Shown piece by piece: positions 2-64,000 of a stretch of DNA of 64,000 nucleotides (its first letter is position 1; each line of letters starts with the position of its first letter). Location: the IMG/VR virus record IMGVR_UViG_2839610755_000002; one strand, written 5' to 3'. Under the pieces are notes generated by a model. It had not been told where the DNA came from. It searched no databases and saw only the letters and a list, made by a program, of their open reading frames with translations. The position numbers and the translations under genes were made by a program. The stretch is from a virus (taxonomy: Duplodnaviria; Heunggongvirae; Uroviricota; Caudoviricetes).

Positions 2-1363
2 CCAGCTATTGACTGGTTTTCCATTCGCCCAACCAGGGTGAAAGCATTCCTTAGCGCGGCGCATTCGGCATCACCATTGGCAGAAATGGTTCAGAGGTTA
101 TCGCTCATATTCACAGACCATACCGCGTTGGGTGATCTGACTCTGGACGAGATGAAAGAAGCCTCCATTCAGTGGGCCGATCAACAAAATGAGGTTAACT
201 CAGACTTCTTGCCAGCATTCAGGAAGGCCGTTAGTAAAGCGGATGATGCCCGTGGAATTCTGAAGGCATTTAAGGCATTGCAAAGTCGGGTTAATAAACA
301 TGTCGGTGATATCGATGGGGTAACGGCGGAAGGCAGGGATATCCTTAAAGAGCACGGCATAACGCCAGAGTTTATTGATGAGATCAGGACGGATATGCAG
401 CGTGAGGTCGTATCGTCCCTGCAAATTGTAGTCAGAGCGTTGGCGGATGCTAATCCGAAGAGTGCGGCCATTGTTAACCGGGTTATTGGTGATATTGAAG
501 CATCGGAGGGCATGGGGGCGCTGAAACACTTCCTTTCGCGAGCGTTTAATCCTAACGGCAATATTCTCCCCGGCATTATTGGTGAGGCTAAAAAGTATGT
601 CAGCGAAGAAGAACTTGAGCATCTTGACCAACTACTTAAGCGATTCTCATATAACCCGCAGACACGCTGGCAAATGAATCAGCGAAGTATGGGTTCGGTC
701 CACGAGAAAGTGTTATCCGCCATGAACAGTGCGATCGCCAACTCATCCGTATCTGAAGAAAAAGCTCTTGAGTGGGCCGACTCTTTTATCACGGAAGAAG
801 TGGAAGAAGCCCGCGCTGGACAGAATGGTGGGATAGACCTGCGCAAGGAACTTGCTGATATTTATCGCCTGACCGGCGGTAAAATTTCGACCTTATCAAA
901 GGTGGTTCACCACCAGGGAAGGGCATATGCAAATCTTAATGGTGTTGTTGCTGTCAATTTGAACGATGAAAATGCAAGTGCACTGTGGCACGAGCTGGGT
1001 CATCATCTTGAGTACAGTAACCCAGGTTTGTTAGAGAAAGCCCGGTCATTCCTGAAGGCCAATGTTGAAGGGGATAAGCCATCTTTCGTCAATATCGGTG
1101 GGCGTGGCAAGCCTGAATGGTGCTTCAGATCTCGATTGAGTAATATTTATATGGCGAAGGTATACCCGCCAGCCTCAGTAAGTAACACCGGGAAAATTCG
1201 GCAGAAATCACCGACTATTTCCAAAACGTCAGCAACGGAAGTATTCTCTATGGCTCTTCAGTTGTATCATGACAAAGAGGCCGCTGCCGCATCACTGATG
1301 AATGGTGACGGATTGCTGGAACTGTTATTAGGTGTGGCAAAGGAGCTAAATAATGCAGATTAA
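2..1363 (+). CDS. hypothetical protein, 5' end outside window; C-terminal part carries an HExxH zinc-metallopeptidase-like motif (WHELGHHLEY)
   Basis: Reading frame is open from the first in-frame codon of the window to the stop at 1361-1363; HELGH motif resembles ImmA/IrrE- or SprT-type metallopeptidase cores; next gene is translationally coupled. Confidence 0.5.
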   Translation, partial: PAIDWFSIRPTRVKAFLSAAHSASPLAEMVQRLSLIFTDHTALGDLTLDEMKEASIQWADQQNEVNSDFLPAFRKAVSKADDARGILKAFKALQSRVNKHVGDIDGVTAEGRDILKEHGITPEFIDEIRTDMQREVVSSLQIVVRALADANPKSAAIVNRVIGDIEASEGMGALKHFLSRAFNPNGNILPGIIGEAKKYVSEEELEHLDQLLKRFSYNPQTRWQMNQRSMGSVHEKVLSAMNSAIANSSVSEEKALEWADSFITEEVEEARAGQNGGIDLRKELADIYRLTGGKISTLSKVVHHQGRAYANLNGVVAVNLNDENASALWHELGHHLEYSNPGLLEKARSFLKANVEGDKPSFVNIGGRGKPEWCFRSRLSNIYMAKVYPPASVSNTGKIRQKSPTISKTSATEVFSMALQLYHDKEAAAASLMNGDGLLELLLGVAKELNNAD

Positions 1364-8378: not shown

Positions 8379-9242
8379 ATGAACAAGCTATCTATGGGGG
8401 TGTTTCGCTGTTCAAGTGTCAGCGAAATATTGAAATACATTAGGGCAATAACATCTCACCGGGCGCCGATTAAATACGGCGTGGAAAAGGTGGAAGGCAA
8501 AAGCTATGACCGACTGCGCCGGGAGGCGAATCAGAAGGCGATAGATTTGCTTAATTCGCTGGTGGACGGCGCGACACTGACAGATGAACAGCGCCAGATC
8601 CTGGCTGGGTACACCGGTGAAGGTGGCATTGGCGGGGCCGTCTCCGAATATTACACACCAAAGCCGATCGCTGAAGGCGTCTGGGAGATCATGAAGCTCT
8701 ACGGCGCGGACGTAGGTAACACTCTGGAACCATCGGCGGGAACCGGCGTTTTTAATGAGACAAAACCGGTTGGTACGGTGATGACCGCGACTGAGATCAG
8801 CAGTGTTTCCGGTCGTATAAACCAGTTGTTACACCCGGAAGACAGCGTACAGATTTCCCCGTTCGAACAGCTGGCTATAAGCACGCCTAACGATTCATTC
8901 GACCATGTTGTGGGTAACGTTCCGTTCGGCGGTCGTGATAACACACGCAACATCGATAAGCCTTACGCAGAAGAAACGGACATGGGTTCTTACTTCATGC
9001 TCCGCATGCTGGACAAGATAAAGCCTGGCGGATTCATGTGTGTGATTGTGCCGCCGTCCATTGTTTCAGGTTCAAACATGAAGCGGTTACGCCTGCGCCT
9101 ATCCCGTAAAGCTGAATTTCTTGGCGCTCACCGCTTGCCTACCGGTACTTTTGACGCAAACGGGACCAGTACGGTCGTTGATGTGGTGCTGATGCGTAAA
9201 CATCCGGCAGAGATGGCTGAGAAAATCCCCCCTGGTGGATGA
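8379..9242 (+). CDS. darB: DarB-like protein, N-terminal fragment (N6-adenine methyltransferase domain), ended by frameshift
   Basis: SAM-binding motif LEPSAGTGVF and NPPF-like motif GNVPFGG; ORF stops 4 codons after a C6 run at 9227-9232 and the downstream ORF continues in the +1 frame. Confidence 0.75.
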   Translation: MNKLSMGVFRCSSVSEILKYIRAITSHRAPIKYGVEKVEGKSYDRLRREANQKAIDLLNSLVDGATLTDEQRQILAGYTGEGGIGGAVSEYYTPKPIAEGVWEIMKLYGADVGNTLEPSAGTGVFNETKPVGTVMTATEISSVSGRINQLLHPEDSVQISPFEQLAISTPNDSFDHVVGNVPFGGRDNTRNIDKPYAEETDMGSYFMLRMLDKIKPGGFMCVIVPPSIVSGSNMKRLRLRLSRKAEFLGAHRLPTGTFDANGTSTVVDVVLMRKHPAEMAEKIPPGG

Positions 9243-12200
9243 AGGCACTCTTGAATCGGCAAATGTGCTTTGGCCAACGTTTATTTCTGGCAAGTGGTTC
9301 GAAAAGGACGGCCGCCGGTTTGTTCATGGCACCCAGGAGAAGGGTTTCCAGGGGCGTATTGAGGTTCGTGCCGACGGGCAGATTGATAACCTGGCTCTTA
9401 AAGCGAAGCTGATTCATCGTTTCGAAAGTCGTATCGACTGGTCTTTGCTCGATATGGCTGAACCGTCACCGACCGCAGATGTTGTTGATGAAGGGGAAAT
9501 GCGCCTGATTAATGGCGTATGGCAAAAATATGCTGGTGGTCGCTGGATTGAAGCTGATGCCGGGAAGGAGCTGAAGATTGATGTTGCCAGTTATGGCGCG
9601 GATAGCTGGGAGGCTCTTCAGCGTAACCTGACTACCACAGAAGGTCGTCTCGGCATGACATTTACCCAGATGGCAAATGTCCGCGATAAGTACACCACAT
9701 CAATCAGCGACGATATGGTGCAGCTGGTGGACTGGATTAACAGCCAGCCTGAAAAATACCGTGAACGCTTGTATCGCGGGGCGATGATTGGCCGGATGTT
9801 AATTGAATATCAGGATATGAAGGCCGCCGGGCATAGTGCTGAACAAATCGAACAGCAGCGCCTTTCTCTGGTATCCCGTTTGCAGGCAGAGATTGACCGC
9901 TTTGGTAATCCTGGTCGCGGTCCTATAGCGAAATTGTCGGGGAGCGGTGCGCGCGCCTGGTTTGCTTTCCGTGGTGCGATTAAGCTGGATGGCACTATTT
10001 CTGACGAGCTGACAGGAAAGCTGGTTACGCATGATTCCAGCGCCAGTTATGACTCCACCAGCTATCAGGACATCCTGCGTTATCTCTATAGCGATCTTAC
10101 CCGCGATCCAATCCAGCTCGATGATTTCCGCCTTGCGTTTACCGGCGAACTGCCAGCCAGTGATAAAGAGTTGCTTAATTTATTGGCCAGCACCCCTGGT
10201 ATTGCGGTTTCACCGTATGGCGGGATTGTTCCGTTCGCCCGCGCCACCAGCGGCGACATTAACGAGATAGTGGCTCCAAAACAGGAATTCCTCGCCACGC
10301 TCCCCGACGGTCCAGTAAAGAACAACGTCCTTAATCAGCTGGCAGCGATCGAAGAGAAGCGCATCAAGACGCCAGCAGAGAATATCCGCTTTAAGCTCAA
10401 TAGCCGTTGGTTCGACCGTTCCGTCATTCTGGAATTTTTGCAGGAAAACGGCTATCCGGATCTGCGCTATGTGCAGTCAGTGCAGCTGGAAGGCGACGAA
10501 ATGGTTTCTGACACCTATCACGGTGGTGATGGTCTGTTCGTCGGACACCGATACGGTGTCGTCCAGCGCAAGGATAAAGAAACAGGCGAGATCCGCTACG
10601 AGTGGGACCGTAAATCAGGTGAAAACGCGACCGGGTTCCCGGCACAGCTGGAAAAGTATCTCAATGGTGCGCGTATCGGTGGCAAAGATAGCGCGACGGC
10701 GAACGGCTACCGCGAGCAGATGGCACTGCTTGAGGACCAGTTCAATAAGTGGCTCAAGACGCACGATCGCTACGATGAGCTGGTTGCCAAATACAACGAT
10801 GTGTTCAATAGCAATATCCCGTATGAACACTCTGGCGATCCGCTTGGGTTGAAGGGATTAAGCGGTAAGCGCCAGCCATTTGATTACCAGAATAGCGAGG
10901 TGCGCCGACTGTCCGAAGATGGGCGCGGCATCCTGGGCTTCGGCACCGGGCTGGGTAAAACGACGACCGCGCTGGCGCTTGAGGCGTTCAACTATGAGAA
11001 CGGTCGCTCCACCCGTACTGCTTATGTAGTGCCTAAAGCAGTGCTGGAAAACTGGTATTACGAAGCAAAAGAGTTCCTGAGTGAAGAGGCATTCAGTAAC
11101 TACCTGTTCGTCGGTCTTGATGTGCTGATGGATGGCGATCAGATTCGCCAGGTGCCGGTGCTCGATGAGAACGGTAAACCTGTTCTTGGTACTGATGGCA
11201 CTCCAGTTATGCGCGATGCTCTTAAGCTGGCAGATGAAGCCACTATCACGGCGCGGATGAACGCGATCCCGCACTCAAATTACCGTGCAGTCGTGTTTAC
11301 CAAAGAACAATACGCCCGCATTCCGCTACGTGATGACACCGTAGATGAGCATGCACAAGACATGCTTTATGACTTCGTTGCTGCCGGGCGTGTGGCCAGC
11401 GCAATGGACTCCGATTCCCATCGCAAAGAGGCGGCGCGTCGCCGGGTATTGTCGGAGTATTCAGATACCGGTACCGAAAAAGCAGAGAAGTATCCGTACT
11501 TTGAGGATATGGGCTTCGACAGCGTGATTGCTGACGAAGGCCACAACTACCGCAATAGCTATAAAAATGGTCGCGAAGCGTCACAACTGGCCTATCTGCC
11601 CACCAGCGCGGTGGCGCAATCGGCGCGGGATATGGCAATCAAAAACGCGTACCTGATGAAAAAGAATGGTGGGCGCGGACCGGTTCTCCTGACTGCAACG
11701 CCAGTAGTTAACACCCCGATCGATGCATACAACATGCTTTCTCATGTGCTGCCGAAGGAATACTGGCAGAAGATGGGGATCTACGGTCCTGATGACTTCG
11801 TTAAATTCTTCGGCAAGACCAGGCTGGAAACGGTACAGAAAATCAGCGGCGAAGTTGAAGAAAAAATGGCGCTGGTGGGTTTTGAAAACCTTGATGCGCT
11901 GCGCGGCATATTCCATCGCTGGACAACGCTTAAAACGGCGGAAGACGTTAAGGATACCGTGGAGATCCCGGAACTGGACGAACACCAGCAGGATGCACCA
12001 CTTACTGAAGAACAACTGGCGGCGTATGAAGAATTGCGTCAGCAGGCGGAAGCGGCAGCCAAAGCCAACAATGGCGTAACGACCTCGGTCAATGAAGACG
12101 GCGTGATTGAGCACGAGAAAGCCCGTCCGATCTTCTCAATAATCAGGGATATGGACCGCGTATGTACTGACATGGACCTGTACTATCGCCGGATCACCTA

Positions 12201-15147
12201 TCGTTTCCTGCCGGAGTATGCCGATGCGGTGCAGCAGCTGGCGGACAGTTTGCCTAAACAAGCCACCAGCGAAGACGACGACAGTGATGATTCAATCACG
12301 CAGCAATCGCAATACTCCCTGATAGATAAGGGCGAGTTTATTCAGTTGCAGGTTCCGGAAGCGTTCGAGCAGGAAGTGAATAAGCGCCTGGCCAGGTTTG
12401 GCATTGACGAACAGACCGTAACTCACCCCGTTACGCCCAAATACGCGAAGCTGATTGCCACGCTGAAGGAGTTTTTCCCGGAAGGTAAGCAAATCATCTT
12501 CACCGATGAAAAAACGCAGCACCAGAAGCTCAAGCGCATTATCTGCAATGCTCTTAACCTTGAACCTTCAAAGGTGGGGATCCTGAATGCTCAGACGGTT
12601 GCCGAGGCAGGTAAAACCGGTCAGAAACTGAAAGCTGTTAAACCGCCGAAAGAGCTACCGGATGAACCAACAGATGCGCAGATAGCGAAATACAACGAGC
12701 AAATGGCTCGGTATGACGCCTATATCGCGCAGCAAAATGAAATGTCGTTGGGCGGTCTGGAAAAGATTGCAGCCGACTTCCAGGAGGGCCGGACTCCGAT
12801 CATCATCTGCAACAAAAAGGCAGAGGTGGGTATCAACCTGCATCGAGGAACGACGGATATCCACCACCTGACGTTGCCGTGGACTCCAGCCAGCATCGCA
12901 CAACGTAACGGTCGCGGTGCACGAGTTGGCTCCAACCGTGCAAGCGTTCGCGTTCACTACTACTGCGGCAAGGGGTCTTTCGATGAATACCGACTGAAGA
13001 CGCTGAAGCGTAAAGCAGGCTGGATCTCCGATATCCTCCGTTCAGATAAGTCAGAAATGGAGAACGCCGACGCCAATGACATGATCGAAATGCAGATGTA
13101 TACCGCGAAGGATGACGGCGAACGTCTGGCAATGATGCAGGTTCAAATGGATAAGGCGAAAGCTGCGAAACGCGCTCGCCAGAAAGAACAGGCTACTATC
13201 GACCTTCAGAACTACATCAAGGCGCAGCACGCAGCTGGTGAGGATGTGGAGGTACTTACCGCTGAATTGGAGCGAAGCAAAGCGGAACTTGAAAAGACCA
13301 CCGCCGACGTCGCCAAATTCAAACAGGCGGTAATGGCCAAAGCAGCTGATAACGCAGACTGGAAAGCCCGCTGGGGTAGCGTCCATCACACAGACCGTAT
13401 GTTGTTAGCACAGTATCGCGCGTCGTTGAAAAGCGCCATTCAGCGCAAGGCTAATATCTCTCAGGCCATCTCCCGCTATGAGAAATTATTGAACCGTACT
13501 CAGAAGGCCGCGACGGATATCAAACGCCTGCGCCCGCTGGTGGAGGATGCAATAAATAAAGGCATTCTGGATGTTGATCCTGATCTGGTTAACCATGCGA
13601 ATGAGTTCCTTGTTATCGGCGATCGCTCATGGCGTGTAGGCCAATACTATGATTGTGCCGGTGATATCGTTCGCATTAAGTCGCTGGACTTCGACAGCCA
13701 GCGCGCAGACGTGGAGATCATCTTTACCTTCAAAGGTACCAAATCGGGTAACTGGGATGTGAAGACGCTGGATAAACAGGTTGATGTAACTCCCGATGAA
13801 GATGCTGTTATGCAGAAAATCAGTGGTGGCGTCTCCATCGCCGGGATTAACGACATCATTTCCTGTGACGATTTCTACCGTTTCCAGCAGCGCGGCATGA
13901 TCAAAATCACTGACTCATACGGCGTTCAGACTACAGAGTCAGGCTATAGCATTGATTTTGTTGGTACCTATACGTACCCACTGAAGCATGCGGTTTACCC
14001 GGATCGCCGTGACGGCGCGCTGAAGTCGTCAATTGCAAAATGGGTGCTTGGTATGATGTCGGAAGGGAATAACCGCCAGATCCGTTCGGCAGAAACATTC
14101 CTGGTTGAACTGTTTGGCTCCAATTATGGCGATGTAATCGCGTCATACGGAGATACGCTATCCCCTGAAGCAATTCAGGAGAAAATAGCGGATGCGATCG
14201 CCAGAATGCCGGAAAAAACAAACCAGGGGGCTACTCGTAACGGGGATTCTGAACTTGAGGTCACCAATGCTATTTTCGGTACCAATGAGTTCCGGGCGTC
14301 AGATTATGAGATCACCACAGCACAGTTTGGCACCATTGGCATTTACAGCAATAAAGACGAGATCAAGCAGGCAATGGACGCAGCAAGCGCGCGCATTGCA
14401 GCAGAACGGAAAGCCAATCTGAATCATGCAGTCGCCGCGCTGACTCAATCGTGGGTAACAGCAATCAGGGAGGCCGCCACCACAGGAAAAATCACACCGG
14501 CAATTGCGGATGTCGTAAACGACGGCTCTAAATTTATGGATGCCTATAAAATGGATGCGATGAAGTTGCCATCAGCCTATGGTCAACTCAGCTATCGCAT
14601 GACCTACAACCTGGTATCAATGTTTTCCGACCTTGCCATCCTTGGGCTGGTGGATCTTAACGAGGTTACGCCGGACTTGCTCAGCATGCGCAAGAATCAT
14701 GTGGAGATATTGCAGAGAATTAACACGGTTCTTGCCGGGCGCACCGATGAAGAGAAACAGGCCGACGCTGATCGGATAAACCTGGCCCTTGGCAACATCA
14801 CGGAGGAAGAAATTGCCGCCAGAAACGAGAAACAAGAAGAGTTATCATCAATACAGGGTGATGCCACCAGCATAGCTCAGTCTCTTGGTCTGAATTATCG
14901 CGTATCCACTGCCGACCTGAAGATGATGTACGCACCAAAATTCGCCGCTGGAGAGGTATTTGGGCTTCAGGAGGCGTCCGGCATGAAAGGCGTTCTTTTC
15001 CGTGCTAAAGACGCAATCAAGGAAAAATTCGGCGCTCGCTGGCTGCCAGCGAAGGCGAAGAACAGCGATTTCCCGGGTAACTGGTGGATTATCGAGACAA
15101 AACACAACGTGGCGGACGTTCTGGCCGTCATCCAACAATACGCATAA
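9235..15147 (+). CDS. darB: DarB-like protein, C-terminal fragment (SF2 helicase domain and long C-terminal region)
   Basis: Helicase motif I GFGTGLGKTTTALA and motif II VIADEGHNYRN; 1970 aa; frame is open back to 9193, overlapping the end of the upstream fragment. Confidence 0.75.
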   Translation: MDEGTLESANVLWPTFISGKWFEKDGRRFVHGTQEKGFQGRIEVRADGQIDNLALKAKLIHRFESRIDWSLLDMAEPSPTADVVDEGEMRLINGVWQKYAGGRWIEADAGKELKIDVASYGADSWEALQRNLTTTEGRLGMTFTQMANVRDKYTTSISDDMVQLVDWINSQPEKYRERLYRGAMIGRMLIEYQDMKAAGHSAEQIEQQRLSLVSRLQAEIDRFGNPGRGPIAKLSGSGARAWFAFRGAIKLDGTISDELTGKLVTHDSSASYDSTSYQDILRYLYSDLTRDPIQLDDFRLAFTGELPASDKELLNLLASTPGIAVSPYGGIVPFARATSGDINEIVAPKQEFLATLPDGPVKNNVLNQLAAIEEKRIKTPAENIRFKLNSRWFDRSVILEFLQENGYPDLRYVQSVQLEGDEMVSDTYHGGDGLFVGHRYGVVQRKDKETGEIRYEWDRKSGENATGFPAQLEKYLNGARIGGKDSATANGYREQMALLEDQFNKWLKTHDRYDELVAKYNDVFNSNIPYEHSGDPLGLKGLSGKRQPFDYQNSEVRRLSEDGRGILGFGTGLGKTTTALALEAFNYENGRSTRTAYVVPKAVLENWYYEAKEFLSEEAFSNYLFVGLDVLMDGDQIRQVPVLDENGKPVLGTDGTPVMRDALKLADEATITARMNAIPHSNYRAVVFTKEQYARIPLRDDTVDEHAQDMLYDFVAAGRVASAMDSDSHRKEAARRRVLSEYSDTGTEKAEKYPYFEDMGFDSVIADEGHNYRNSYKNGREASQLAYLPTSAVAQSARDMAIKNAYLMKKNGGRGPVLLTATPVVNTPIDAYNMLSHVLPKEYWQKMGIYGPDDFVKFFGKTRLETVQKISGEVEEKMALVGFENLDALRGIFHRWTTLKTAEDVKDTVEIPELDEHQQDAPLTEEQLAAYEELRQQAEAAAKANNGVTTSVNEDGVIEHEKARPIFSIIRDMDRVCTDMDLYYRRITYRFLPEYADAVQQLADSLPKQATSEDDDSDDSITQQSQYSLIDKGEFIQLQVPEAFEQEVNKRLARFGIDEQTVTHPVTPKYAKLIATLKEFFPEGKQIIFTDEKTQHQKLKRIICNALNLEPSKVGILNAQTVAEAGKTGQKLKAVKPPKELPDEPTDAQIAKYNEQMARYDAYIAQQNEMSLGGLEKIAADFQEGRTPIIICNKKAEVGINLHRGTTDIHHLTLPWTPASIAQRNGRGARVGSNRASVRVHYYCGKGSFDEYRLKTLKRKAGWISDILRSDKSEMENADANDMIEMQMYTAKDDGERLAMMQVQMDKAKAAKRARQKEQATIDLQNYIKAQHAAGEDVEVLTAELERSKAELEKTTADVAKFKQAVMAKAADNADWKARWGSVHHTDRMLLAQYRASLKSAIQRKANISQAISRYEKLLNRTQKAATDIKRLRPLVEDAINKGILDVDPDLVNHANEFLVIGDRSWRVGQYYDCAGDIVRIKSLDFDSQRADVEIIFTFKGTKSGNWDVKTLDKQVDVTPDEDAVMQKISGGVSIAGINDIISCDDFYRFQQRGMIKITDSYGVQTTESGYSIDFVGTYTYPLKHAVYPDRRDGALKSSIAKWVLGMMSEGNNRQIRSAETFLVELFGSNYGDVIASYGDTLSPEAIQEKIADAIARMPEKTNQGATRNGDSELEVTNAIFGTNEFRASDYEITTAQFGTIGIYSNKDEIKQAMDAASARIAAERKANLNHAVAALTQSWVTAIREAATTGKITPAIADVVNDGSKFMDAYKMDAMKLPSAYGQLSYRMTYNLVSMFSDLAILGLVDLNEVTPDLLSMRKNHVEILQRINTVLAGRTDEEKQADADRINLALGNITEEEIAARNEKQEELSSIQGDATSIAQSLGLNYRVSTADLKMMYAPKFAAGEVFGLQEASGMKGVLFRAKDAIKEKFGARWLPAKAKNSDFPGNWWIIETKHNVADVLAVIQQYA

Positions 15148-15180: not shown

Positions 15181-15621
15181 ATGGCCACACTATCTGATAC
15201 AATAAAACCGAATAAAACATATCTTGAGGCGGTACTCCGTACAGCGTTGTTAGGAAAGACAGAAGACGAATACGTTGATTTCTTCCTGTCAGGGCTACGC
15301 GGGCGATTACTGAAAAATCCCCGCCTGTACCGCAGCTATGGCCCATACTGGCCGGAAATTAAAAAATTATTACTGGAGCGCGGTTATGGTAATTTGGGTC
15401 GTCTCGTTGACCGTGACGTTCGCAAAATTTACCGTTATGACCGCCCGGCGCTGACGCTCATAGCTGCGACGCTCTACAGCCAGGAGCGTTTTGATAACGG
15501 TCAGATATACTCAGCCTGGCATTTATTGCCAGTGCCTGAAGAAGTTGACGACCAGGACTATGAGTTTGAGTCTTACGATTTGGAAGTTGAAGCCTTAGCA
15601 CAGGCTGGAGAGAAAACTTGA
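15181..15621 (+). CDS. ulx: Ulx-like protein
   Basis: 146-aa ORF directly downstream of darB and upstream of the lxc-like ORF (4-nt overlap); name by P1 synteny only. Confidence 0.5.
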   Translation: MATLSDTIKPNKTYLEAVLRTALLGKTEDEYVDFFLSGLRGRLLKNPRLYRSYGPYWPEIKKLLLERGYGNLGRLVDRDVRKIYRYDRPALTLIAATLYSQERFDNGQIYSAWHLLPVPEEVDDQDYEFESYDLEVEALAQAGEKT

Positions 15622-15927: not shown

Positions 15928-16878
15928 ATGAATGTTTTTATTGATACAAATCTATATTTAGAATTTTACAGGATGGGTAGAGATAAACTAGATGAGCTGG
16001 ATAAAGTATTTGCCTTACATCAATATGGTCGTTTAAAACTTTGGTTACCAGAGCTTTTAGTGAATGAGTTCTGGAGAAATCGTTCTAAAGTTCTCTCTGA
16101 AACCATAAAGGAAATAACAAAAGATTATAAGCCCGCGCTTCCCCAGATTTTTAGGCAACATGAAAAGCATTCACAATTTAATGATAAGGTTATAGAAGCA
16201 GGTAGGTTAAAGAATGAAATTATTACAGATATCCAGAAATTGTTTAAAGAGGAGGCTTTGGCTGCCGATATTGTAATTAAAAGGATTTTTGATGCAGCAT
16301 CTAAAATAGAGGCTGATGATGAAACAATAGATAAGGGGAAACTTCGATTTGATCTTGGAAACCCGCCAGGCAAAAATAAATCATATGGTGACGCAGTTAA
16401 TTGGGAATGTTTGCTAAAAGCGATACCAGACGGTGAGGATATATATATCATAACTGAAGATGGTGATTATAAAAGTGCCTTTATAAAGGATGATATGAAT
16501 GAATATTTGAAGCATGAGTGGAAAAAAAAGAAAAATTCAGAACCACATATCTATTCCCGCTTATCAGAGTTTATAGGCGAGCACTTTCCTCAAGCTAGTA
16601 ACTTGGTGGAAATGGAAGTTAATCTCACTATAGATGAATTACGACACTCTGGCAGTTTTGCTACAACACATCGAGTTGTAGCAAAATTATTAAAGCTCAC
16701 TCACTTTACACAAGAGCAAATCCTAAAAATAATTGATATTTATTTTGAAAATGATCAGGTTGGTTACATCAAAGATGATGATGATGTGAAACTTCTTGCC
16801 AGAAGACTAATATCATTAGGTGACGAGGATAAAGATCCTGAAGGGATGCTGGAGACATTCCGTGTATTTATTGATTAG
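15928..16878 (+). CDS. PIN-like nuclease-domain protein, AT-rich cargo gene at the P1 res-mod position
   Basis: ATG with GAGGA RBS; N-terminus MNVFIDTN plus spaced acidic residues (LVNEFW, GDAVNW, TEDGDY) fit a PIN-like fold; first 60 nt are about 23% GC (counted by hand), versus GC-richer flanking backbone by eye. Confidence 0.8.
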   Translation: MNVFIDTNLYLEFYRMGRDKLDELDKVFALHQYGRLKLWLPELLVNEFWRNRSKVLSETIKEITKDYKPALPQIFRQHEKHSQFNDKVIEAGRLKNEIITDIQKLFKEEALAADIVIKRIFDAASKIEADDETIDKGKLRFDLGNPPGKNKSYGDAVNWECLLKAIPDGEDIYIITEDGDYKSAFIKDDMNEYLKHEWKKKKNSEPHIYSRLSEFIGEHFPQASNLVEMEVNLTIDELRHSGSFATTHRVVAKLLKLTHFTQEQILKIIDIYFENDQVGYIKDDDDVKLLARRLISLGDEDKDPEGMLETFRVFID

Positions 16879-21971: not shown

Positions 21972-23089
21972 TTATTCAGCTGCCACCGGTTTTAACAAGC
22001 CAGCATCGAGCAGTTTACGCGTCAACCACTGCTGGCCTTTACCCGTTAATTGAGGCGTCAACCGTATCTGGTAGCCATCTTCATCATCCAGCACCACTTC
22101 TTTCACCGTGAAATACCCCGCGTTGATGTACTGCTGGAACGGCACATTTTTACGTCCACCGGACGCTATCAGGATGCCGTTCTCCCGTAACCAGACAAAC
22201 AGCGCGTTTTGCTTAAGTCCAACAACCTTTGCAAAATTCCCAATCAGGATCCCTTTAGCTACTGATACCCGGTCGGCAAAATCGACTTTAGGAGCGGCGG
22301 CCACCAGCTGCTGATTTAGCTGGTGGGCTTTCTGTTCCAGAAGTTGCTTTTGTTCAGCCAGTTCGGCAGCCAGGCGTAGGGCTTCAGGAAGCGTCTGGGG
22401 GATTGCGATCGGTTGCTGTTCTTTTTGTCGGAAGTAGCTGTCTTCCAGTTTTTCAAAGAATGCCCATGCCTGATCGGTTTCGAGCATTTTAGCGTGGCGG
22501 GCTGCGCCGCGTTCTGTCCAGAGGGGAGTGAGCGAACATTGCGAGCAATTTTTACAGAGTAGTTTAAAGCTACTCTGTGCTTCAACTCGCGCAATGATTC
22601 TCCTTCAACTTTGAAAAAGTGCTTCCCTTCAACAAAGCGTACTTTGTTCTCATGATGATTTTGGCGAATACGGATTGTTTCTGTCCCATACCCTCTAGCA
22701 AGAGTCTCGGTTGTCACTACACGCACTCCCTGCCATTCCAGAACGGGAATTTCATCAGACTGATTCTGAACAACCACCAGCTCCGATTCCTGAACTGAAG
22801 GTGCATGAATTTTTTCTGATTTAACGTTAGTTGCTTTCATTCTGTGTGCCTCCTTGCGTGCTTCGGCTGCGACGGTTGCGTAATTCAGATGACCCTGTTC
22901 GAGCAGGTATTCGCGGATATCAGACAACAGGATACGGTGAACCGCGTTCTTGTCCTTTCTCCGGTAAAGTTGTTTGGTGATCATGAAGTAGTTGGCAATA
23001 ACGCCTGGTATATCCCTGGTACTGATACAGGCAGTGTGCTGTTCAATTGCCTCGATCATCTCTTCACGGGTGACTAATGACGTTCTCAT
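21972..23089 (-). pseudogene. antirepressor-like gene copy A (ORF6N/Bro-N-like middle, ANT/KilAC-like C-terminus), split by frameshift
   Basis: Two overlapping ORFs (22316-23089 and 21972-22487) in different frames; the C-terminal about 130 aa are near-identical to the intact 344-aa copy at 50391-51425; shift lies near a G4 run at about 22523-22526. Confidence 0.6.
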
Positions 23090-23645: not shown

Positions 23646-25130
23646 TCATTCATTAAGCCATGCCAGAGCTTCATCAACCTGCGCTTCGTCTTCGACGCTA
23701 AGCACTTCATCCTGGGGAACATAATCAGCCAGCATAGCGAAACAATATGTATCCCAATGGTCTGGTGAGTGCAGGTTGAGTTTTTTCTTCATATCCTCCT
23801 TACTCATCACTTTCCATTGACCTGCGGAGTTAATCCCTACAGGGATTTTCGACGCTTCCTCAATAGTTTCATTACCCTTATCCAGTCTCATACGACCAGA
23901 TTTTACGGCCTCTGCGGCTTGAACGTTGGCATAAGCACGTTTATCAAAGTACAGGCTCTTATCTTCACGGCTATGCATCTTTTTACCCCAGCGTATACGC
24001 TGTACGGTAATACCATAATACTCGTACATCAGATCCGCCGTTGCTTTACCCAGGCCATCGCCGTCTATCGCTATGGTGATATTTGGGAATCGCTCAGGAT
24101 TACATTCTGCGAAAATTTTGGCGGCAAGCTGCGTTTCTGTAACGTCTGTGTATTCCAGCATTCGATAGTTGATTACACGGCGTTTATTTCGCTGGCCGGA
24201 CACCATCATGATATTGATAACGGACTTATCCCGTCCCGTACCACCAGCAACGTCCACACATGCAAGCCAGCCCCATCCTTTTGCAATCTTGACTTTCCGC
24301 CGCGTTGCACGTTCAACCTCATCACGTCCAAGAAGGAAGCCATCCTGTGATTTAGGGAATAGGCCGCGTACCTTAATCATGTACATAGGGTTATCGCGCC
24401 CGCCGTACTCCGCCAGCTTCATTTTGATAAATGCTGGCGTTACCAGCGGTGATTCCTCACTGTTAAGCGTGATCGCCGTATAAACGCCATCAGGGTTACC
24501 AGGACGCTTGGCCAGTTTATGGTGAGTATCGTAGAAATAGCCGCTTGGGCGTGTAGGCTGTGACAGTAATAAGATGCGGTTATCCTGTCCGGTAAGAGCA
24601 CCGGTGATGATACCGAAAGCTCTATCACTGACACCGGAGGCTTCATCGATAATATACAGAAGATGATCTGCGTGTTCACCGGCGAGAGCTTCTTCACTTC
24701 CCAGACGAAAGCCCTTCGGTACTACAGTCCATACACCTTTACCAGTAACCTCATAGAAAGCGGTTTCTGTCAGAACAAAATAATCAGCAAGCCATGGGAA
24801 ACGGCTGGTGGCAGTAGCCCAGTTTATCTTGATGTACTTGAATATACCGGTCATTACCTGCTGAATTTTGTTCGCAACGATAATGGCTCGGGCACCGGGA
24901 TACATGATTATGAACAACATGATCATGATAGAAGTCATGTCTGATTTCCCGGTACCGTGACCAGACGAAACAGATGTCTTGCTACCCTGTTCCTGCACAG
25001 ACTCAATAATCAGATCCTGCTGCCAGGTAGGTGTTTTGCCGAACAAAACATCAGCGGCCGCAATCCAGTCATAACGATATAGCGCCACCAGCTCGCGCCA
25101 ACGTGGATCCGTTACGCAACTTCTGGCCAT
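23646..25130 (-). CDS. pacB: terminase large subunit (pacase)
   Basis: 494 aa; Walker [10 protein letters not shown] and Walker [12 protein letters not shown]; adjacent to pacA. Confidence 0.9.
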
Positions 25131-26323
25131 TAATCATCATCCCCGTATAGCTTGCGGGTAACTTCTTCGTCTTCCTCCTCGTCTTCGTCCAGGTCTTGTT
25201 CCAGCCATGGGTCGTTTGATGCACCTTCAGTATCAACATCTCCATAACCGCCTGTATCAACGATATCGGCGATTTCTTCCCTACGCTGCTCAATCCACAA
25301 TGCGGCATCCGCGCGGCGGTTGGCGGCCCGTTCTCGCGCAACTTTGTCCAGATCTTCAAGAGAAGGGCCACCGACGGCTGTTTGCCTTTCCTCATCATCG
25401 GTATTGGTCTTAGGAGCACGCAGATCGGCTTTGATTTGCTCCAGCATCAGGGGCGGCACTTTCCCGCCATGCGCCTCGATGAATTCAGCTGCTTCCAGCA
25501 CTGACCAGTTATTTTCACGCTTTCGTTCGTATGCCAGCTTAACAATGCCAGCTTGCCCCATAGATAAAGCGTGCTTTTCCGCCTCCCGGCTTTCTTTTCG
25601 ATAGTTATTCCGGATGCTGTAAATGGTGTTGATCAGGCTGCTTATCTGCGCGGAACAGCTGTTTAGCATGCTCGCGATACGATATTCAGGCGGAGTCCCT
25701 TCATCATCGTCTTTTTGCTGATCGCGCATTTCCTGCACCAGACGAATACACGTATCCCTGGCGTTCTCCAGCATAAGGAGATGAGAAAGAGACTTTTCCA
25801 GAAGAGTGGTTTCCAGAACATCGGCCCCGGACCGACGCAACATAGCGCGCGCGGCCTTCCGCGCTTCAACGTTATCTATCAGGTAATCGCCAGCTTCGAA
25901 TTCAAAGCGTTCACCATCATCATCCAGGGTGTCGCGTTCCAGGCGATCACGTAAGGTCCGGTGGGCGCGGGTGATCACGTCATGATCATCAGAACGATCA
26001 TTTATGCGCTTATTTTGGCGCTTCGCATTCTCGACTGCGGCACTGACAACGGCATTAACCCTTTGTTTTTCCGCTATTTCAGCCGCAATGTGATTACCTG
26101 CATGTTGATCATTAGAGTGATCAATGATCATGCTTTTTAGTGGCTTCCTGACTGGCTTATTTGGCTTGCGGCTGTCCGCTGTCCTGGTGTCTTCTTTGAA
26201 GGCACGGAGATAACGACGTGCAGTATTAGGGTTAAGATTAAACTCGGCGGCATACTGTGCGATGGTGTAACCACCATCTCGCGCCAGGCGAGCAAAATTC
26301 TTCTTGTGATCGTCCCAGGTCAC
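25130..26323 (-). CDS. pacA: terminase small subunit (pac-recognition subunit)
   Basis: 397 aa; contains the pac hexamer clusters within its coding sequence, as in P1. Confidence 0.85.
25944..26131. other. pac: pac packaging site (4+3 TGATCA/G hexamers with GATC Dam sites)
   Basis: Four hexamers at about 25945-26001 and three at 26106-26129 inside pacA. Confidence 0.75.
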
Positions 26324-26408
26324 TTATGCTTCCTTTCGTAAAAACTCTTTTTGACGCGAGGGTAACGAAAGTCACATGTCAAAAGGCCCGGAACGGGCAA
26401 GCAATCAA

Positions 26409-26861
26409 TCAGATACGTGCGGATGTGGCATTACCGTAATGACGGTGCTGACGGGCCACCTTATTGAAAAGTTGACGCGCCATTACCCAAGGCTGGTGCT
26501 CCCGGCGTTCCTTTTCGTCCTGCGTCATATAGAGTTCGTTCTGGAGTTTTTCATCAAACCGGCGCGGAGCGCGGCTACGGCGAAAGAATTCAGGATTCAG
26601 AGAGTGGATCTGAAATCTACGTGGGCGTGTACTGTCATCAATCAAAACAGACGAATACTTAGACACAGCGATAGCCTTTAAGCGCAGATAAACATCGCGC
26701 TTATCGACATCCAGATGCGGGTATTCCTTTTCAAGAATTGCTGCGAGTTCTTTCGCTGATAGAAGAGATTTAGTGCGGATCATGTAATCCGCAATCTCGT
26801 ACGATGTTATTCGTGAGTGATTTATTTCCATGAAGTGGCGTCCCTGCCAGTTAAGTAACAT
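26409..26861 (-). CDS. lpa: late promoter activator (Lpa-like)
   Basis: 150-aa ORF upstream of pacA on the same strand with a C1 operator just upstream; name by synteny. Confidence 0.55.
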   Translation of the reverse strand: MLLNWQGRHFMEINHSRITSYEIADYMIRTKSLLSAKELAAILEKEYPHLDVDKRDVYLRLKAIAVSKYSSVLIDDSTRPRRFQIHSLNPEFFRRSRAPRRFDEKLQNELYMTQDEKERREHQPWVMARQLFNKVARQHRHYGNATSARI

Positions 26862-26931
26862 CCTGTCACCTACTGATTAGCCCATGTCAACTAATCAACG
26901 TGGAATATAATACCCTCGATTAAAGAAATAG

Positions 26932-26948
26932 CAATACATTAGAGCAAT
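26932..26948 (-). promoter_or_regulatory. C1 operator-like site upstream of lpa
   Basis: Minus strand reads ATTGCTCTAATGTATTG. Confidence 0.5.
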
Positions 26949-26949
26949 T

Positions 26950-27993
26950 TTATCTAACGCTCGACGAGTGACTTGTGATAGCGCCGACTCCAAGCGCGTA
27001 ATCAAAGAACAATCGTTGATGCATCGCCAGCCTGCCGTGCGTCTTCTCCCAATTATCGCGGTCACGCTCAATATCACGCTGGCATGACTGGCACAGAGGA
27101 ATTGCGTAAATGTCATGCGCGCATAATCGACTATGACGAACGATATAAGGCGTAATGCGAGCGCCAGCTCCCGCAGCTCCACATCCACAGCACGGACGGG
27201 AAGCAACAAAGTCCATGTACTCGGGTAATTTTAGCGATTGCAGTTTTGGTATTTTGAAATGCGCCATGCCAGGGTCGGAGTCAACATCCACAGGGCATAC
27301 TTTTGCACGCATCGGCGCGGCGCGTTCTTCCATCATCTGAACATATGCTGTAGCACGATCGTCGTACGGGCGAATATCCGCCTCTTTCAAAGGTCCGCTA
27401 TCCTGCGGAGCAGCCTTCATCTTATTTATTGATATGCGGCAAACTTCTTCCGGCATCAGGTGCATCATGTTGCGCATGAAAGCCCACCAGCACAGTTCCT
27501 GAATACTTAAATCATGGCCATCTGAAAGCCCCATTTCCTGACGGGCGACATCCAGTATCCAGTTAACGCGATTATTATGCAGCGTTTCTTTCAGCTCATT
27601 AAAACCACGCATCCGGTAATGGTTATCGTGATGCCAGCACAACAACACCGCGCTATTGTCTCGTTCTGCGTGGACAATATGGTTGTCACACCAGCTACGA
27701 TCTGCGGCCTGGCATTGCCCCTCTTTCCTGCGCAACCACGCCACCAGCGCGTCAATTCCACCAATACGGCGAAACAGTTCATCGCTGTTAAAAAACGGCT
27801 GCAACGCCTCATTTGTTGCCATAGTTTGCTCGGAAACAACGAGGCCGTCGTCCATGTGCTCGATTAACTCACGCGGCACCGGCTCCATAATAAATTTACG
27901 GCCAGCCTCCACCAGCTTTCTGACTTCCTGATCCACTTTGAATGTGGCGACGCCAAGCTCTTTTTGTACAAAGGGAGTAATTACGGCTTTCAC
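26950..27993 (-). CDS. pdcB: PdcB-like protein (Cys-rich C-terminal region)
   Basis: 347-aa ORF, second gene downstream of doc; Cys cluster CCGCG...CAHD...CQSCQ; name by position. Confidence 0.45.
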
Positions 27994-37502: not shown

Positions 37503-38223
37503 TTATTCCTGAATGCGCTTAAACTCGATTACCCACACCAAGGGATTAGCGTTCCAGCTTTCTTCACCATAGATGGATTCCCACAGGCGCTGGAACGCAA
37601 CCTTGGCCATTGCGAAATCCCCCTTGGGAGTAAGGAATGTTCCCGGGTGATCAGGAAGCAAACTCCCAGCAGGCGGAACGCCCTCAGCCCTTGCATCGCA
37701 TTCGCTGATATCGTTCAACCGTTCAACGCGCACGTTGGTAATTTCCAACAGAATGCGTGATGCCCATCGCGGCATGTGAATTGATGGACGCCACCCACCA
37801 TCAAACTTTTCATTCACAGTGTGAGGTTTCCAGTCGGCATCATCGGGTATCGACCATAAGCCGTAATCACCAGGTTTTTGCTCGCAACTGGCCCGATAAA
37901 TCCTTGCTGCGTTCTTCTCATCGCCACGACAAAGGTTGTCGTTCCAGTACACTGCAACCATCCTCATTGCCTAATATCGCCAACGCTTCACGGACCCATA
38001 TGCGATCACCAACGTTACCGAACGGGCATAAACCATGTTCAGGTGCATCCATAACGTGGGTATAGACACCATTGCGTTTCTTTGTCGGTTTACGGATAAC
38101 CAGGCAGTTATCGGCCCTGACATTTTTTACAGGTCGGCGAGTCTGCGTCTTCCTTCCTTCAAGGATGGCCCGGACCATCTCATCGTTGAAAATCATGCCG
38201 CGCTCTTTCACTTCGCCTTTCAT
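37503..38223 (-). pseudogene. ASCH-like protein apparently split into two overlapping ORFs
   Basis: N-part (MIFNDEMVRAILEGRKTQTRR...GDRIWVREA) and C-part (...RPSIHMPRWASRILLEITNVRVERLNDISECDARAEG) look like one domain in different frames. Confidence 0.4.
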
Positions 38224-63116: not shown

Positions 63117-63277
63117 ATGTCATTCTTTTCTACGTTAAAAACAGCTTTGTCTTTGAAGGAGAAACTTGCTGCTACTGGTGTTCTTGTTCTGATTTGCGCA
63201 CTTGTTGGTGCTGGGTTTGCATGGGAACGTCATCAGCTAAAGCAAGCCATGGAGAAAATTGGCAGTCTTGATCAGGC
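63117..63277 (+). CDS. small membrane protein gene, 3' end interrupted by IS insertion
   Basis: CAGGAGGAAG RBS; TM segment; reading frame runs into the IS end at 63278. Confidence 0.45.

Positions 63278-64000
<723 letters not shown>

Follow-up and report, generated by a model that had tools for sequence, protein, structure and literature searches.

The window analysed here, a 64,000-nt stretch of the IMG/VR record IMGVR_UViG_2839610755_000002, begins inside ddrB and carries, further along, a counterpart of the phage P1 anti-restriction gene darB, with a portal-like gene of 569 aa upstream and ulx downstream (Table 1). At the nucleotide level, the darB region shares 96-98% identity with the darB genes of P1, P7 and further Punavirus records; against P1 darB the value is 97.4% over 701 nt. 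In the P1 genome (NC_005856), the counterpart is a 2255-aa CDS with the annotation darB, "defense against restriction" (P1_gp011, YP_006479.1). The 5' part of the gene in the window has a Pfam match to N6_Mtase/Eco57I, and the 3' part has matches to SNF2, ResIII and Helicase_C. The window thus shares with P1 the gene order prt-darB-ulx, the domain order (a gamma-class N6-adenine methyltransferase (MTase) followed by an SNF2/ResIII helicase with Helicase_C) and, once the lesion described below is repaired, the length of the product. Both the orthologous sequence and the position between prt and ulx identify the gene as that of P1 DarB, and the original prediction that darB is divided here into a methyltransferase part and a helicase part is borne out by the identity to P1 and P7, the Pfam domains and the 2255-aa length after repair. 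The ddrB counterpart in pF1273-3, the closely related plasmid considered below, is a 995-aa CDS (24028-27015), and in syntenic loci the ddrB product carries PF18763 (ddrB-ParB).

Table 1. Coordinates of the darB region and of associated features in the window
Feature	Position	Strand	Description
ddrB, 3' part	2..1363	+	453 codons open from window base 2; the window begins inside the gene
darB pseudogene	8379..15147	+	6769 nt; without the extra C, 6768 nt and 2255 codons
5' ORF	8379..9242	+	Frame 0; 287 aa, DarB residues 1-284 followed by Pro-Gly-Gly
C6 homopolymer	9227..9232	+	Wild type is C5, with codons ATC CCC CTG encoding I283 P284 L285
+1 frame	9193..15147	+	Rest of the N-terminal domain and SNF2-type helicase region
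ulx	15181..15621	+	146 aa, intact; phrog_1629 'Ulx-like anti-restriction', E 1e-65
IS3-family insertion	46530..47840	+	Absent at this site in pF1273-3; orfA 46584-46910, orfB 46907-47797

DarB is a 250-kDa protein of which about 40 copies are packaged per virion, and the first 30 of its residues are enough to target it to the capsid (PMC9024508). Loading is aided by Ulx and by DdrB, the latter being the Dar component needed for adding DarB to the capsid, and the packaged protein counters EcoK and EcoB restriction (PMC9024508). The ordered packaging of Dar proteins described in PMC12810830 agrees with PMC9024508, and darB of P1 is non-essential (PMC10695390). For the N-terminal domain of DarB (residues 86-290; window 8379-9230), the best sequence matches among solved structures come from modification subunits of type I systems, EcoKI HsdM among them (E 1e-5), and a fold search places it among HsdM, BsaXI, TaqI and CamA, which are gamma-class adenine methyltransferases. 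EcoKI, to which this HsdM belongs, is the system that DarB counters.

Six C residues are read directly at the break, in the context ...GAGAAAATCCCCCCTGGTGGATGA... (positions 9215-9242 are GGCTGAGAAAATCCCCCCTGGTGGATGA), and they form the sole C run of five or more bases within the 6.8-kb darB. The frame-0 codons at this point are ATC CCC CCT GGT GGA TGA, with the stop at 9240-9242. The 5' ORF and the C6 tract stand as originally predicted, but the stop does not lie four codons after the run, TGA being the third codon past the one that holds the last C. In the +1 frame, the final stop maps to 9190-9192, so the claim that this frame is open from 9193 holds, and it continues to 15147. Its first in-frame start is GTG 9235 (ORF 9235-15147, 1970 aa), while the start used by gene callers is ATG 9655 (1830 aa). 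Deleting one C in silico produces a single ORF of 2255 aa with zero internal stops, which is the length of P1 DarB and is in line with the expectation that C5 in place of C6 would fuse the two halves. Compared with P1, which has C5, the C6 of the window splits the frame after residue 284. A single polypeptide of about 2255 aa uniting the targeting signal, the N6-MTase and the SNF2-type helicase is not encoded in the window, where these parts are divided between the 287-aa ORF and a 1970-codon +1 frame. Since all the DarB domains are present but split, the locus is a pseudogene of the DarB family and not an intact member. A CCTGGTGG sequence beside the tract is one base off Chi (GCTGGTGG) and was judged irrelevant.

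The tract length was compared across related records, as the original prediction had also proposed. P1 (NC_005856) has C5 at the tract site. Among 70 IMG/VR contigs that contain the site, the tract reads C5 in 67, the synonymous CCCCT in two and C6 in one; this sole C6 copy has the same flanks as the other C6 copies. The exact C6 90-mer was found in 8 of the 450 complete E. coli records that contain this 90-nt stretch. Within the best 60 of these 450 records, the remaining 52 span one base less, which corresponds to C5, and an even sample of the 450-record ranking showed C5 throughout, except for one record spanning two bases less. Exact C6 matches were present in 3 of 450 PLSDB records. By these counts, C5 is the wild-type state, found in approximately 98% of relatives, and C6 is a minor allele at 1-2%.

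The likely consequence for the protein was examined using an AlphaFold model of the N-terminal part (alignment of 20 homologues, pLDDT 73, pTM 0.72). A search with the 283-aa fragment for natural stand-alone MTase homologues returned mostly partial proteins at contig ends, and its hits were used only for the alignment behind this model. The last strand of the MTase core spans residues 268-274 and is followed by a confident helix at 277-285 (pLDDT ~93). Confident helices, carrying the conserved motifs ANVLW and GKWF, continue to about residue 310, and confidence falls beyond this point. Because the confident fold extends to about residue 310, the break after residue 284 interrupts the folded N-terminal domain itself rather than a linker. 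According to the model, the 5' fragment has the whole MTase beta sheet and ends before conserved helices of the N-terminal domain. For the downstream frame, the calculated Shine-Dalgarno (SD) duplex is -2.7 kcal/mol at GTG 9235 and -4.7 at ATG 9655, as against -5.9 at the true darB start, and no good SD match was found at its in-frame starts. A two-gene arrangement served by an internal promoter or terminator was considered and rejected, the scan counts being at the level of shuffled sequence. A product restarted in the +1 frame would miss the N-terminal targeting signal, so it would not be loaded into capsids.

One way in which the split gene might still serve is translational bypass: ribosomes would either slip by +1 at AUC CCC CCU or reinitiate at GTG 9235, and the full-length or two-part DarB made in this way would suffice for a working system. 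The sequence CC[C/U]-[C/U] is especially prone to +1 shifts, at up to ~1% at the second codon in E. coli (PMC4519876), and re-pairing of tRNA-Pro from CCC to CCC would restore the exact DarB frame. In addition, GTG 9235 sits 5 nt ahead of the stop and overlaps the stop region (GTGGATGA), making termination-reinitiation geometrically possible, and the 5' fragment retains the complete beta sheet of the MTase core. On the other hand, the shift site is derived, and the ancestral state, held by the 98% majority, needs no shift. The A site holds CCU, neither a slow nor a stop codon, and there is no SD-like stimulator. The normal dose of DarB is about 40 copies per virion (PMC9024508), and CCC-C slippage could give trace amounts of full-length protein far below this dose. 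Reinitiation fares no better, given in-frame starts that lack a good SD, a restart product that lacks the targeting signal and a break that removes conserved helices of the N-terminal domain. We consider a working bypass very unlikely.

The resemblance to known recoding systems is limited in the same way. Non-programmed CCC-C frameshifting through tRNA-Pro slippage (the work of Gamper and Hou; PMC4519876) has its likeness in the AUC CCC CCU of the mutant mRNA, but the site in the window is a recent mutation, deep in the ORF, with no stimulators and no sign of use. Programmed +1 frameshifting of the prfB type would be accompanied by a conserved shift site, whereas 67 of 70 IMG/VR loci have the shift-free C5 and only 8 of 450 E. 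coli records have the exact C6. The prfB-type stimulators were likewise not found: the A-site codon is CCU, the stop comes three codons on, and the upstream GGCUGAGAAAAU contains no SD-like run at the right distance. As the site is derived and the stimulators are absent, programmed +1 frameshifting is excluded as the family to which this locus belongs.

Comparison of the C6 loci codon by codon (n=14) revealed that the 5' part is essentially invariant, with changes upstream of approximately codon 330 at codon 87 only. The 3' part is a mosaic that differs in shared blocks of mostly synonymous changes, as would be expected if it had recombined with other darB alleles. BLAST comparison of the 5' 1.6 kb found the eight complete C6 records to be at least 99.9% identical to each other, and the nearest C5 allele to be 98.6% identical. 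The exact repaired 2255-aa protein was absent from a collection of 15 billion sequences, and no C5 copy of the C6 haplotype, whether revertant or ancestor, was found among the 450 complete records, the 70 IMG/VR loci or the exact-protein look-up. P0032, which had appeared to be an intact ancestor owing to a rounded "100%" identity, was rejected, as it differs at residue 87 and further downstream. The shared 5' haplotype, the distance to the nearest C5 allele and the lack of a repaired protein together indicate that the insertion arose once, and the sampled sequences point to a single origin of C6 with no revertant seen. At codon 87 (window 8637-8639), the window and the O157 and O111 copies encode Ala (GCC), two C6 loci (L005 and L007) differ, and C5 alleles encode Ser (TCC). 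This non-synonymous change probably arose after the frameshift, dividing C6 into two sub-alleles.

Private substitutions in the window allele are 8 synonymous to 9 non-synonymous, compared with 126 to 91 in 68 C5 alleles (Fisher p = 0.45), and thus there is no molecular-evolution signal of relaxed constraint in the window allele. Of the 15 C6 loci examined, 12 have no further stop or indel in the downstream frame. The substitution counts and the intact downstream frames point to an event that is recent in terms of point substitution; retained function would also fit. For example, the C6 allele might be alive through a slow reversible switch between C5 and C6, through low-dose full-length DarB made by CCC-C slippage, or through a packaged 287-aa fragment that has its targeting signal and MTase core and plays a role of its own. 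We see only a very slight chance that any of these three holds, but if true, any of them would explain why the 1970-codon frame is still intact in most carriers across Shiga-toxin E. coli (STEC) serotypes. Three C6 carriers, namely two drafts and the complete 2012C-4227 plasmid, have in common a 2000-nt deletion at the 3' end of darB (window 13099-15098). The deletion is exact, with GAAATGCAGATG joined to AAAACACAACG at the junction, and lies at about 11720 or 10787 in the coordinates of the three loci (L016, L018 and L091). L016 and L018 differ at 38 sites upstream of it. A 2-kb deletion on the C6 background is what would be expected once the gene was dead.

The homopolymer could also be read as a contingency locus, in which the C run toggles between C5 (ON) and C6 or C4 (OFF) and switches DarB at useful rates. 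The lesion does lie in a homopolymer, tracts of C4, C5 and C6 are all present in databases, and the downstream ORF is intact in most carriers. Phase-variable homopolymers usually have seven or more bases, and the tract here has merely 5-6, short of the length for high slippage rates. Neither repeated variation in tract length nor ON and OFF states within one lineage were found, since C6 is confined to one haplotype whose nearest C5 relative is at 98.6% and which has no C5 copy among the 450 complete records, the 70 IMG/VR loci or the exact-protein look-up. The records that show C4 also contain other indels, the synonymous CCCCT variant shows that the run itself is not conserved, and the 2-kb deletion has accumulated on the C6 background. 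Phase variation of darB is therefore extremely improbable, and the single origin, the lack of revertants and the short tract leave little of the earlier suggestion that the mutation is slippage-prone.

The eight complete plasmids with C6 come from E. coli O157:H7 F1273, O157:H7 TX 376-2, 94_0962, three O111:H8 strains, O103:H2 CEC12044 (Japan) and the CDC strain 2012C-4227. All eight match the C6 90-mer exactly, and direct inspection of the sequence in six of them confirmed C6. PGAP marks darB as 'frameshifted' in each of the five carriers whose annotation was examined, these being the RefSeq plasmids pF1273-3 (NZ_CP038378.1), the pTX376-2 plasmid (NZ_CP038288.1), p94_0962-2, p7_54_11A-2 and pO103_CEC12044_1. 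Their darB is 100% identical to that of the window in the first two and 99.0-99.99% identical in the other three, and in pF1273-3 the stretch identical to the window darB is labelled 'N-6 DNA methylase, frameshifted'. At least 1000 contigs encode the exact 287-aa product, which appears in 1927 index blocks of a public protein collection, where the entries examined were NCBI draft assemblies with contigs of up to ~100 kb. The exact 1970-aa ORF is present in the Logan assemblies of runs SRR8111110 and SRR25036098, both of which have C6. Finally, 16 complete records have identical 90-nt flanks with C5, which rules out a systematic sequencing error specific to this context.

Homopolymer indels are a typical long-read error, and at this very tract C4 has been called in ON470617.2, ON470615.2 and NZ_JBTZPE010000003.1 (L002, L003 and L090, respectively), alongside other one-base deletions and fragmented genes. 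All three records have darB cut into separate CDS, and L090 has a second one-base deletion in darB as well as a frameshifted neighbouring gene. These C4 calls are probably uncorrected long-read errors, which would make the tract an artefact hot spot elsewhere. That C6 itself is such an artefact, with a true tract of C5 and an intact darB, is almost certainly wrong, given that C6 recurs across several laboratories and countries in eight complete plasmids, as well as in many NCBI drafts and in Logan run-level assemblies, that it is bound to one haplotype while other records with the same local sequence have C5, and that the suspected errors at the tract are deletions and not insertions. The original prediction had left the choice open between an indel of sequencing or assembly and a genuine mutation; the former falls with the recurrence of C6 across plasmids, drafts and Logan assemblies, and the latter stands as a heritable and probably inactivating change.

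The element that carries the C6 allele shows other signs of decay. Up to base 46529, the window differs by three SNPs from pF1273-3 of E. coli O157:H7 F1273 (record base 25653 onward). Past this point, there is one more SNP after the IS, and the window has two IS copies that pF1273-3 lacks. The first of these splits a tail-protein gene (phrog_1906 'tail protein'), leaving a truncated ORF of 222 aa (45864-46532). A second IS3-family copy, at 63277-64000 in the ppfA region, is also absent at its site in pF1273-3. The prophage is probably defective for virion production. The PGAP annotation of pF1273-3 lists three further frameshifted CDS (one of only 221 nt), an internal stop in ppfA and a structural gene split by an IS. 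Flags of pF1273-3 that map to window 21972-23089 and 37503-38223 concern a KilAC antirepressor and a hypothetical gene, both 'frameshifted', and the internal stop in ppfA.

Records matching darB cover at least 80% of the gene in only 440 of 705 cases for plasmids and 442 of 712 for E. coli, which indicates that P1-like plasmids often have a partial darB. A virion-borne anti-restriction protein is useless to an element that persists as a plasmid, and relaxed selection is thus a plausible reason why loss of darB may be tolerated. The slot that follows ulx and an 82-aa ORF (window 15928-16878) is variable. It holds a PIN-domain gene in the window, and a SIR2_2, an AraC-type HTH or a DUF2971 gene in seven otherwise syntenic C6 loci (L011-L015, L017 and L094). 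The res/mod restriction genes of P1 lie near this position, and the slot looks like a hot spot for defence genes.

Taken together, the C6 darB is very probably a genuine, vertically inherited loss-of-function allele that arose once and spread with P1-like phage-plasmids, mainly in Shiga-toxin E. coli. We propose that slippage in a C5 run during replication added one C. Translation from the darB start would then end at TGA 9240-9242, and the resulting 287 aa would retain the N-terminal targeting signal and the MTase strands but lose the last helices of the MTase domain and the entire helicase part. The remaining 1970 codons appear to have no ribosome-binding site of their own, and any product made from them would not be loadable into capsids. 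Virions, if still made, would be without functional DarB, leaving their DNA exposed to type I restriction of the EcoK/EcoB type. After its one origin on one darB haplotype, the C6 allele has travelled with the P1-like phage-plasmid lineage, chiefly in Shiga-toxin E. coli.

In conclusion, the locus is best read as an ordinary pseudogene in a decaying prophage-plasmid, neither a sequencing error nor a new mechanism. RefSeq already carries the lesion with the flag 'frameshifted', and the kind of event is ordinary. Our literature search found no paper on a darB frameshift in P1-like plasmids of STEC, and the single-origin allele distributed over several STEC serotypes is described in no paper that we found. 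For annotation and quality control, the break in darB calls for annotation as a true pseudogene, without "polishing" to C5. In addition, C6 together with the private SNPs at darB codons 28, 82 and 322 offers a lineage marker for P1-like phage-plasmids in O157, O111 and O103 STEC. Overall, the C6 allele represents one more virion-borne anti-restriction gene decaying in a phage-plasmid that is seemingly becoming a plain plasmid.
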